Shown in pieces: positions 30,905 to 31,706 of a stretch of 64,000 nucleotides of DNA; position 1 is the stretch's first letter, and every line of letters starts with the position of its first letter. Location: positions 79,980,001-80,044,000 of the forward strand of contig OX597817.1 of the NCBI GenBank assembly GCA_951406725.2, read 5' to 3'. Under the pieces are notes generated by a model. It was not told where the DNA came from. It was given only the letters and a program-made list of their open reading frames with translations, and ran no database searches. The translations under genes were made by a program, and so were the position numbers. The stretch is from Octopus vulgaris. Lineage: Eukaryota.

Positions 30905-31706
30905 AGAAATATTGAGTTTCTAAATCTCTCGTAGAGAGGTGTACGGTGGTGGAGCGATATAATGGTTGTATACTGTCAATCTAACAAGAACGTGACAGTA
31001 GGGGGTACACCACCGTTATATAGCCCTAGGAGGCATCGAACGCCTCCTGACAGCTTCGACACATTTTATCCTGTGTCCTTATATACACATACGAAGGGAA
31101 GACAAACACCCCCAACCGCCGGAACTGCATCTAGGGACACCGTGTTTCAGGATCATTGTCCTTCATCGGCCTAGATGCAGTTCCGGCGGTTGGGGGTGTT
31201 TGTCTCCCCTTTGTATGTGTATATAAGGACACAGGATAAAATGTGTTGAAGCTGTCAAGAGGCGTCCGATGCCTCCTAGGGCTATATAACGGTGGTGTAC
31301 CCCTACTGTCACATTCTTGTTAGATTGACAGTATACAACCATTATATCGCTCCACCACCGTACACCTCTCTACGAGAGATTTAGAAACTCAATATTTCTT
31401 ATTTTGATAATCAGTGAATAGACTTCACTGACTATAGATATATACAAATACGAAGTCGAGACAGATATCGCCAGCTGACCGGTGTCTGCTACTCTAGGCC
31501 GATGAAGGACAATGATCCTGAAACACGGTGTCCCTAGATGCAGTTCCGGCGGTTGGGGGTGTTTGTCTCCCCTTCGTATGTGTATATAAGGACACAGGAT
31601 AAAATGTGTCGAAGCTGTCAGGAGGCGTTCGATGCCTCCTAGGGCTATATAACGGTGGTGTACCCCCTACTGTCACGTTCTTGTTAGATTGACAGTATAC
31701 AACCAT

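Follow-up and report, generated by a model that had tools for sequence, protein, structure and literature searches.

A window of 64,000 nucleotides from Octopus vulgaris (GCA_951406725.2, contig OX597817.1, positions 79,980,001 to 80,044,000) was analysed, and all positions below refer to it. The window is AT-rich and microsatellite-rich and contains no N. Inside a (TA)n run it holds three copies of a 363-nt hammerhead-bearing repeat, of which the first (A) is inverted and the other two (B and C) are forward. Monomer positions are numbered from the first base after the predicted cleavage site. The left (TA)n target run (about 30842–30901) adjoins the outer end of copy A (30901–31175, minus strand), in which the 5' arm of stem I is followed by an intact core and by monomer 1–235. 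Copy B (31170–31532, plus strand) is the full 363-nt monomer, reaching from one predicted cleavage site to the next. Copy C (31533–31711, plus strand) carries monomer 1–179 and ends within the right (TA)n run (31707–31734), the first 5 nt of which are common to the end of C. With (TA)n on both flanks, any target-site duplication would be masked. No further copies of the 363-nt family were found in the 64-kb window beyond A, B and C. The insert has no ORF, four frames over the element were without a Pfam match and a 26-nt piece of the core, searched for by exact scan in prokaryotic genomes, had 0 matches, as expected for an animal repeat. With a partial tandem, an inverted 5' copy beside it and (TA)n to either side, it shares the traits of PLE (Penelope-like element) insertions. 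An RT plus GIY-YIG ORF is missing from it, and no blastn match was obtained to the PLE-like fragment at 16.8–18.4 kb within the window. We regard the insert as a non-autonomous hammerhead-bearing Penelope-type repeat, either a non-LTR retrozyme or a pLTR-only element, placed in a (TA)n run and very probably mobilised by PLE machinery.

The forward hammerhead-like core is of type I and occupies 31499–31532 (plus strand), with cleavage predicted after 31532. A strict type I descriptor matched twice in the 64 kb, at 31499 (+) and at 31169 (-), both in this element, while shuffled windows gave a mean of 0.05 matches (40 shuffles). The core boxes CUGANGA, GAAA and UH are present in type I order, except for U4C. 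Helix I of 6 bp, helix II of 4 bp and helix III of 2–3 bp agree with the sizes expected of metazoan type I hammerheads, namely about 6 bp in helix I, about 4 bp in helix II and a short helix III with a palindromic loop permitting dimer formation (PMC4209133). The helix III segment is short and self-complementary here, with a self-duplex of -9.9 kcal/mol. The 10.1-11.1 closing pair of helix II is A-U and G10.1-C11.1, a highly conserved pair (PMC4209133), is absent. U4C is a natural variant with a considerably lowered activity in vitro (PMC3088659). The core is mispaired in the MFE fold. Rfam at the gathering threshold gave 0 matches over the whole window, and at E ≤ 10 it gave 26 matches in 30800–31800, none of them to a hammerhead and the best being generic hairpin or microsatellite matches. 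Judged from the sequence, the core is hammerhead-like and would fit the canonical metazoan type I with two non-consensus features, U4C and A-U at 10.1-11.1. On account of these two features, of the MFE mispairing and of the missing Rfam hammerhead match its predicted ribozyme activity is doubtful.

Stem I proper, whose 5' arm is 31493–31498 (plus strand), is the innermost part of a considerably longer helix. The 5' arm of this extended stem I (31439–31498, plus strand) is an imperfect inverted copy of monomer 1–56 and pairs with 31533–31588 in a 50-pair hairpin of 44 Watson-Crick and 6 G-U pairs (z -7.1). In fact, the whole monomer, taken as copy B, folds as a rod with an MFE of -134.8 kcal/mol (z -8.0 against 60 shuffles). 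Hammerheads in pLTRs are on record, including pairs on opposite strands 100–700 bp apart (PMC4209133).

Copies A and B meet head to head. Their arms (30901–31135 and 31170–31403) are inverted repeats, 97% identical over 235 columns, and enclose a 34-nt loop. The loop of this genomic hairpin is the core of copy A (31136–31169, minus strand, the descriptor match at 31169), which is identical to the forward core, and 31136–31175 is the reverse complement of 31493–31532 at 40/40 nt. The description in an earlier note on this DNA, a hairpin with arms of about 235 bp and an antisense hammerhead core as its loop, was thereby confirmed. A base-by-base comparison also bore out that the inverted copy ends at the 5' arm of stem I and that the forward copy starts at the 3' arm. 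The overlap between them had been given as the five bases CCTAG at 31170–31174; its place at stem I held, but its length had to be corrected to 6 nt (31170–31175), that is, the whole of stem I. These six bases are explained by both templates and the flanking base on either side by one template only. The true start of B may accordingly lie anywhere inside the 6-nt overlap.

An inverted match of 6 nt is in itself common, being available at 70 of the 363 possible start positions (19%), and stem I is one of 34 maximal inverted matches of at least 6 nt in the monomer, several of which are longer. The position of the junction at stem I reaches about the 3% level, which is post hoc, from a single junction, and suggestive. 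Since the 3' arm of stem I begins at the cleavage site by definition, a junction "at stem I" and one "at the cleavage site" count as one coincidence. We consider it probable, from this one locus, that stem I registers the head-to-head join. That ribozyme cleavage set the start of copy B has roughly even chances; trimming of a flap from an uncleaved run-on would leave an identical junction, so that cleavage, as predicted, would be sufficient for the junction.

The three copies differ in how closely they resemble one another. Copy A is identical to the core plus C (31493–31711) at 218/219 nt but differs from B at 7/235, and B and C differ at 6/179. Over the 179 nt common to all copies, private changes number 1 in A (monomer 37), 6 in B (monomer 43, 78, 89, 97, 131 and 145) and 0 in C. 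Of the six changes in B, five are transitions, three of them at CpG, and one is a 1-bp deletion. The earlier note had counted one difference between the outer copies and six private changes in the middle copy, including three CpG transitions and one 1-bp deletion, and the same count was obtained over the 179 nt. The skew (1, 6, 0) has P = 0.02 under equal rates in a post-hoc test. Three of the six changes in B fall on paired bases in the fold of C, and one of these three weakens the hairpin at 84–112, whose energy goes from -13.8 to -9.1 kcal/mol. All changes that can be polarised are in B and none in A or C, so the B alleles look derived, which suggests that B had diverged before the insertion event.

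From the 218/219 identity to the core plus C and the 7 differences from B it follows that A was not copied or folded back from B. The proposal that A derives from the 3' unit (C) and not from B is thus upheld by the same figures. The changes in B are moreover clustered at monomer 43–145 (31212–31313, a 102-nt stretch; range test P = 0.027), the remaining 96 comparable nt being free of them (P = 0.076), and A and B are identical outside monomer 37–145. B may be a mosaic of two templates.

Copy A also runs 56 nt beyond the end of C, a feature absent from the earlier description. This extension (30901–30956, minus strand; monomer 180–235) is identical to B at 31348–31403 and is read as the one-sided tail of a PLE, lying between two RT start sites. 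A one-sided tail of 30–40 nt on one inverted pLTR is a PLE signature (PMC3846280, PMC8557442), the tail here being 56 nt against the published 30–40 nt. In vitro, both target strands are cut and extended by an anole PLE protein, which initiates reverse transcription at two internal sites bounding the tail (PMC11167929).

These features can be brought together if both target strands primed reverse transcription on one 3' unit at two start sites and the cDNA ends then annealed through stem I and its 50-bp extension. Taken as a whole we give this explanation about an even chance, and double priming as such somewhat better than that. A PLE RT/GIY-YIG protein acting in trans would place the repeat into the (TA)n run, where both nicked target strands would prime reverse transcription on the same RNA 3' unit, at monomer 179 and 235. 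The bottom-strand cDNA would run through C and the core and then through B as far as monomer position 1, a stop that would be accounted for most simply if the upstream ribozyme had already cleaved the RNA at that point. The cDNA primed from the top strand would first take in the tail, then the same 3' unit and the core, and finally the 5' arm of stem I. Each 3' end would be a copy of one arm of the same RNA hairpin, and the two cDNAs could therefore anneal, by 6 perfect terminal bp and about 50 imperfect bp, and each could be extended on the other. The product would be a head-to-head insert with A like C and unlike B and with a tail at one end.

The predicted cDNA-cDNA duplex has -21.4 kcal/mol (DNA parameters) against -5.3 kcal/mol for the 6 bp alone, and the arm of the extended stem is the best annealing partner along the array. 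Also in favour are the one-sided tails of 3/7 other head-to-head repeats in the window and the GIY-YIG fragment at 16.8–18.4 kb, which has a hammerhead-like 3' end and (TA)n of its own. The evidence for double priming comes from one junction at one locus, and the clustering of the changes in B is not explained by it. As to the cut RNA end, hammerhead cleavage was dispensable for insertion by the anole PLE in vitro and RNA-seq reads ending at its cleavage site were absent (PMC11167929).

The mechanism offered in the earlier note was different: reverse transcription was held to have reached the ribozyme-cut 5' end and to have switched template via stem I onto the 3' unit. Its stem I register and its derivation of A from C are retained in the double-priming explanation; the single switch is not, and the cut end figures there as a predicted one. 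As far as the switch was meant to go onto sense RNA it fails on strand logic, as an inversion requires an antisense (cDNA) template and a cDNA end continuing on sense RNA gives a direct repeat.

The window was searched for comparable structures. Out of 12 other self-folding repeats found, 11 were viewed and 7 analysed further; left out were 61868–62245 and 62076–62421 (apparently pairs of interspersed-repeat copies), 32158–32317 and 63125–63171 (short or weak) and 21115–21154. The tail pattern, with one arm at most 5 nt from a microsatellite and the other 35–42 nt from one, was seen in 3/7 (8729–8941, 47097–47451 and 32766–32951), the background chance of lying within 8 nt of a microsatellite being 0.09. 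Among the remaining repeats, one of the seven abuts a microsatellite on both sides and three fit neither pattern. The youngest of these controls, a head-to-head repeat (47097–47451, 96.5%, 11-nt loop), is set in (TA)n and has a tail of 39 nt on one side, and we take this insert (47097–47490) to be PLE-like and of another family. A 42-nt one-sided extension precedes the microsatellite in 32766–32995. No recognisable core was found at the junction of 47097–47451, 32766–32951 or 13648–13787.

An older head-to-head repeat at 29538–29795 (86%) has a hammerhead-like motif in both arms, a 21-nt spacer and microsatellite on both sides. Homology between its arms begins at the second core base, and the decayed 8729–8941 looks similar. 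The core is retained in both arms of these repeats, so that the forward arm of 29538–29795 begins elsewhere than at its cleavage site. The idea that the spacer of 29538–29795 is a second cleavage-site stub was rejected, since 13% and 35% of 3000 random 18-mers scored equally well. A relaxed descriptor gave 9 matches in the window as compared to 0.68 in 25 shuffles, which do not keep microsatellites, and the hammerhead-like motif at 14811–14980 is doubtful. A GAAA box with a palindromic stem III was noted in the decayed head-to-head repeats 8729–8941 and 14811–14980 and at a solo site at 60343; the 13-nt word of these sites occurs 4 times in the window against 0.13 expected. Inversions in the window do not require a ribozyme, and stem I may simply be the hairpin at hand. 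The forward arm demonstrably starts at the cleavage site in 0/7 of the other head-to-head repeats, and the suggestion of the earlier note that its mechanism holds generally for the inverted 5' pLTRs of PLEs found no support there.

Four other routes to the same structure were weighed. A single polymerase could have folded back, the cDNA reaching the 5' end, pairing through stem I with the B/C ribozyme copy that it already carried, and copying the core plus C. This predicts the resemblance of A to C (218/219) and an identical junction, and the self-complementary (TA)n would allow a run-on to join the left flank. The cDNA of C stops at monomer 179, however, and so cannot supply the extra 56 nt of A without a later deletion or a second jump: either C once ended at 235 and has since lost these bases, or the cDNA jumped a second time, onto that of B. 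A 7-nt word present at monomer 173–179 and across the A/(TA)n junction means that a microhomology deletion could have shortened C, and the tail of A is identical to that of B. An additional event is nevertheless needed for what is a standard PLE feature, and one-sided tails recur in 3/7 of the other repeats in the window. Foldback was accordingly judged unlikely, though worth keeping in mind. A DNA event after insertion would dispense with the ribozyme altogether, in that a B-C tandem came first and a replication or repair template switch then took place at the apex of the 50-bp quasi-palindrome. Quasi-palindromes are natural template-switch points, stem I is the innermost helix of just such a long imperfect palindrome and the window holds head-to-head repeats without a core. 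Such an event would, however, also have to yield a PLE-like tail and a clean join to (TA)n, and no inverted duplication of unique flank was observed. We consider it improbable.

The remaining two routes were also set against the comparison of the copies. Terminal self-priming, which Arkhipova et al. 2013 put forward for palindromes at inverted junctions (PMC3846280), is the model in print for this architecture. In it A-B would have been made as a perfect hairpin, followed either by chance mutation of B or by gene conversion that made A and C alike. The identity of A and B outside monomer 37–145 agrees with it. It predicts, however, that A equals B, and 7 differences were observed against 1 between A and C (P = 0.02 under equal rates), all polarisable changes being derived in B and none in A or C; its probability is low, if slightly above that of the DNA event. 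An assembly or library artefact, being a foldback chimera or a mis-join of two loci, is brought to mind by the (TA)n on both flanks and by the trouble that tandem and inverted PLE structures are known to cause in assemblies (PMC8557442). A foldback read would give identical arms. Here 7 sites distinguish A from B, and it is the distal copy that A matches, which makes a simple foldback artefact unlikely. The window is furthermore free of N and contains older, diverged repeats of like layout (71–96% arm identity), and an artefact is on the whole very unlikely.

Several other features were noted in the window. The segment 16824–18366 (minus strand) is a 3' fragment of a probable EN+ PLE with an asparagine-rich linker and a GIY-YIG domain (Pfam E 0.004, below the curated cut-off). 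Asparagine-rich inserts have been described for rotifer PLEs. The fragment has a hammerhead-like motif with a long helix II at 16957–16885, ends in (TA)n and has no homology to the 363-nt unit; a homologue search with the GIY-YIG fragment returned 62 candidates, none at E ≤ 0.001. A decayed interspersed repeat (30240–30822), with a homologue at 51948–52523 and no Pfam match, adjoins the target (TA)n on its left and presumably resembles a Tc1/mariner end. Fragments of broken reverse transcriptase (matches to Pfam RVT_1 at E 8e-5 and 8e-3, under the cut-off) are found at 37020–37841 (minus strand), and a 224-aa frame with a weak PHD-finger match (E 0.0035) at 21851–22522 (minus strand) may be an exon or a transposon. 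A tandem repeat with a period of about 61/123 nt (56861–57362) is GC-richer than its surroundings. An abundant SINE-like family of 400 nt, 75–87% alike, is present at 1342–1769, 9236–9667, 27559–27973, 33107–33516, 61425–61820 and elsewhere.

The origin of tandem and inverted PLE insertions has been called undefined and the role of PLE hammerheads unclear (PMC8557442), and the explanation guessed at in print is self-priming upon an antisense template (PMC3846280). That guess predicts identical hairpin arms, whereas the present locus shows the opposite, the inverted copy matching the distal unit. The architecture itself is already published, and the insertion is one further case of a known type, described accurately by the earlier note apart from the overlap length and the tail. 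What appears to be new, at one locus, is the link to stem I and the double-priming reading; a literature search conducted mostly at title and abstract level returned no report of a PLE junction at stem I or of twin priming for PLEs.

If the resemblance of A to the distal unit recurs elsewhere, the 2024 biochemistry, with both strands primed at two start sites, would be tied to the inverted ends of PLEs. This is cheaply testable genome-wide from the position of the junction relative to the cleavage site and from which copy the inverted arm resembles. Only tentatively, and against the odds as we see them, could the inverted 5' copy and the one-sided tail of PLEs be ascribed to one reaction, in which both strands are primed at two RNA start sites and the cDNA ends are joined through an RNA hairpin, this being stem I at the cleaved end in hammerhead families. 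The ribozyme would then gain a role in closing the insertion and every join would leave, on the opposite strand, a ribozyme whose stem I is long and perfect. The 50-bp imperfect extension of stem I could in turn be the fossil of an earlier join and a route to rod-shaped retrozyme RNAs. Reports exist of siRNAs from Penelope inverted repeats (PMC3681739). The 235-bp hairpin described here is likewise a likely source of dsRNA.

The double-priming explanation resembles L1 twin priming, reportedly described by Ostertag and Kazazian in 2001, in which the second target strand is said to prime internally on the RNA and the resulting head-to-head inversion to be joined by microhomology. Second-strand internal priming and head-to-head inversion are shared. 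The proposal made here differs in that both primers would use the same 3' unit at element-defined sites, and in that the join would be templated by a built-in RNA hairpin, the L1 join being made by chance homology.

Among PLEs, the layout of two direct units, an adjacent inverted unit overlapping the first and a tail at one end is established (PMC3846280, PMC8557442, PMC2377424). EN+ PLE insertions such as Pen2a_Av and the Penelope of D. virilis likewise have two direct units, an inverted 5' unit next to them, a tail on one of the ends, a head-to-head junction with an overlap (15 bp in Pen2a_Av, with a 37-bp offset; PMC3846280) and an AT-rich or (TA)n target. In contrast, the present insert has no ORF between its direct units, its tail is 56 nt and its overlap maps to the hammerhead stem I; PMC3846280, which treats palindromes at inverted junctions, makes no mention of a hammerhead or ribozyme. 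Poseidon of Anolis carolinensis in vitro extends both target strands, with two internal RT starts bounding the tail, and it likewise has an AT-rich target and a hammerhead upstream of the start sites (PMC11167929). It differs in that its hammerhead cleavage is dispensable and in that the main text, in the sections consulted, leaves inverted 5' copies unaddressed (PMC11167929).

Metazoan non-LTR retrozymes share with the insert a tandem unit of 150–450 nt (363 here), a type I hammerhead with a 6-bp helix I and a 4-bp helix II, a self-paired monomer and the lack of an ORF (PMC7229834; bioRxiv 10.64898/2026.07.22.740005). The insert departs from them in being only a partial dimer with an inverted copy and in its U4C and A10.1-U11.1; inverted insertions are not described in the consulted sections of these two sources. 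"Active" retrozymes are defined by at least two consecutive tandem units with complete ribozymes (bioRxiv 10.64898/2026.07.22.740005), and the insert has one forward and one inverted core. A PLE origin has in fact been proposed for the non-LTR retrozymes (bioRxiv 10.64898/2026.07.22.740005).
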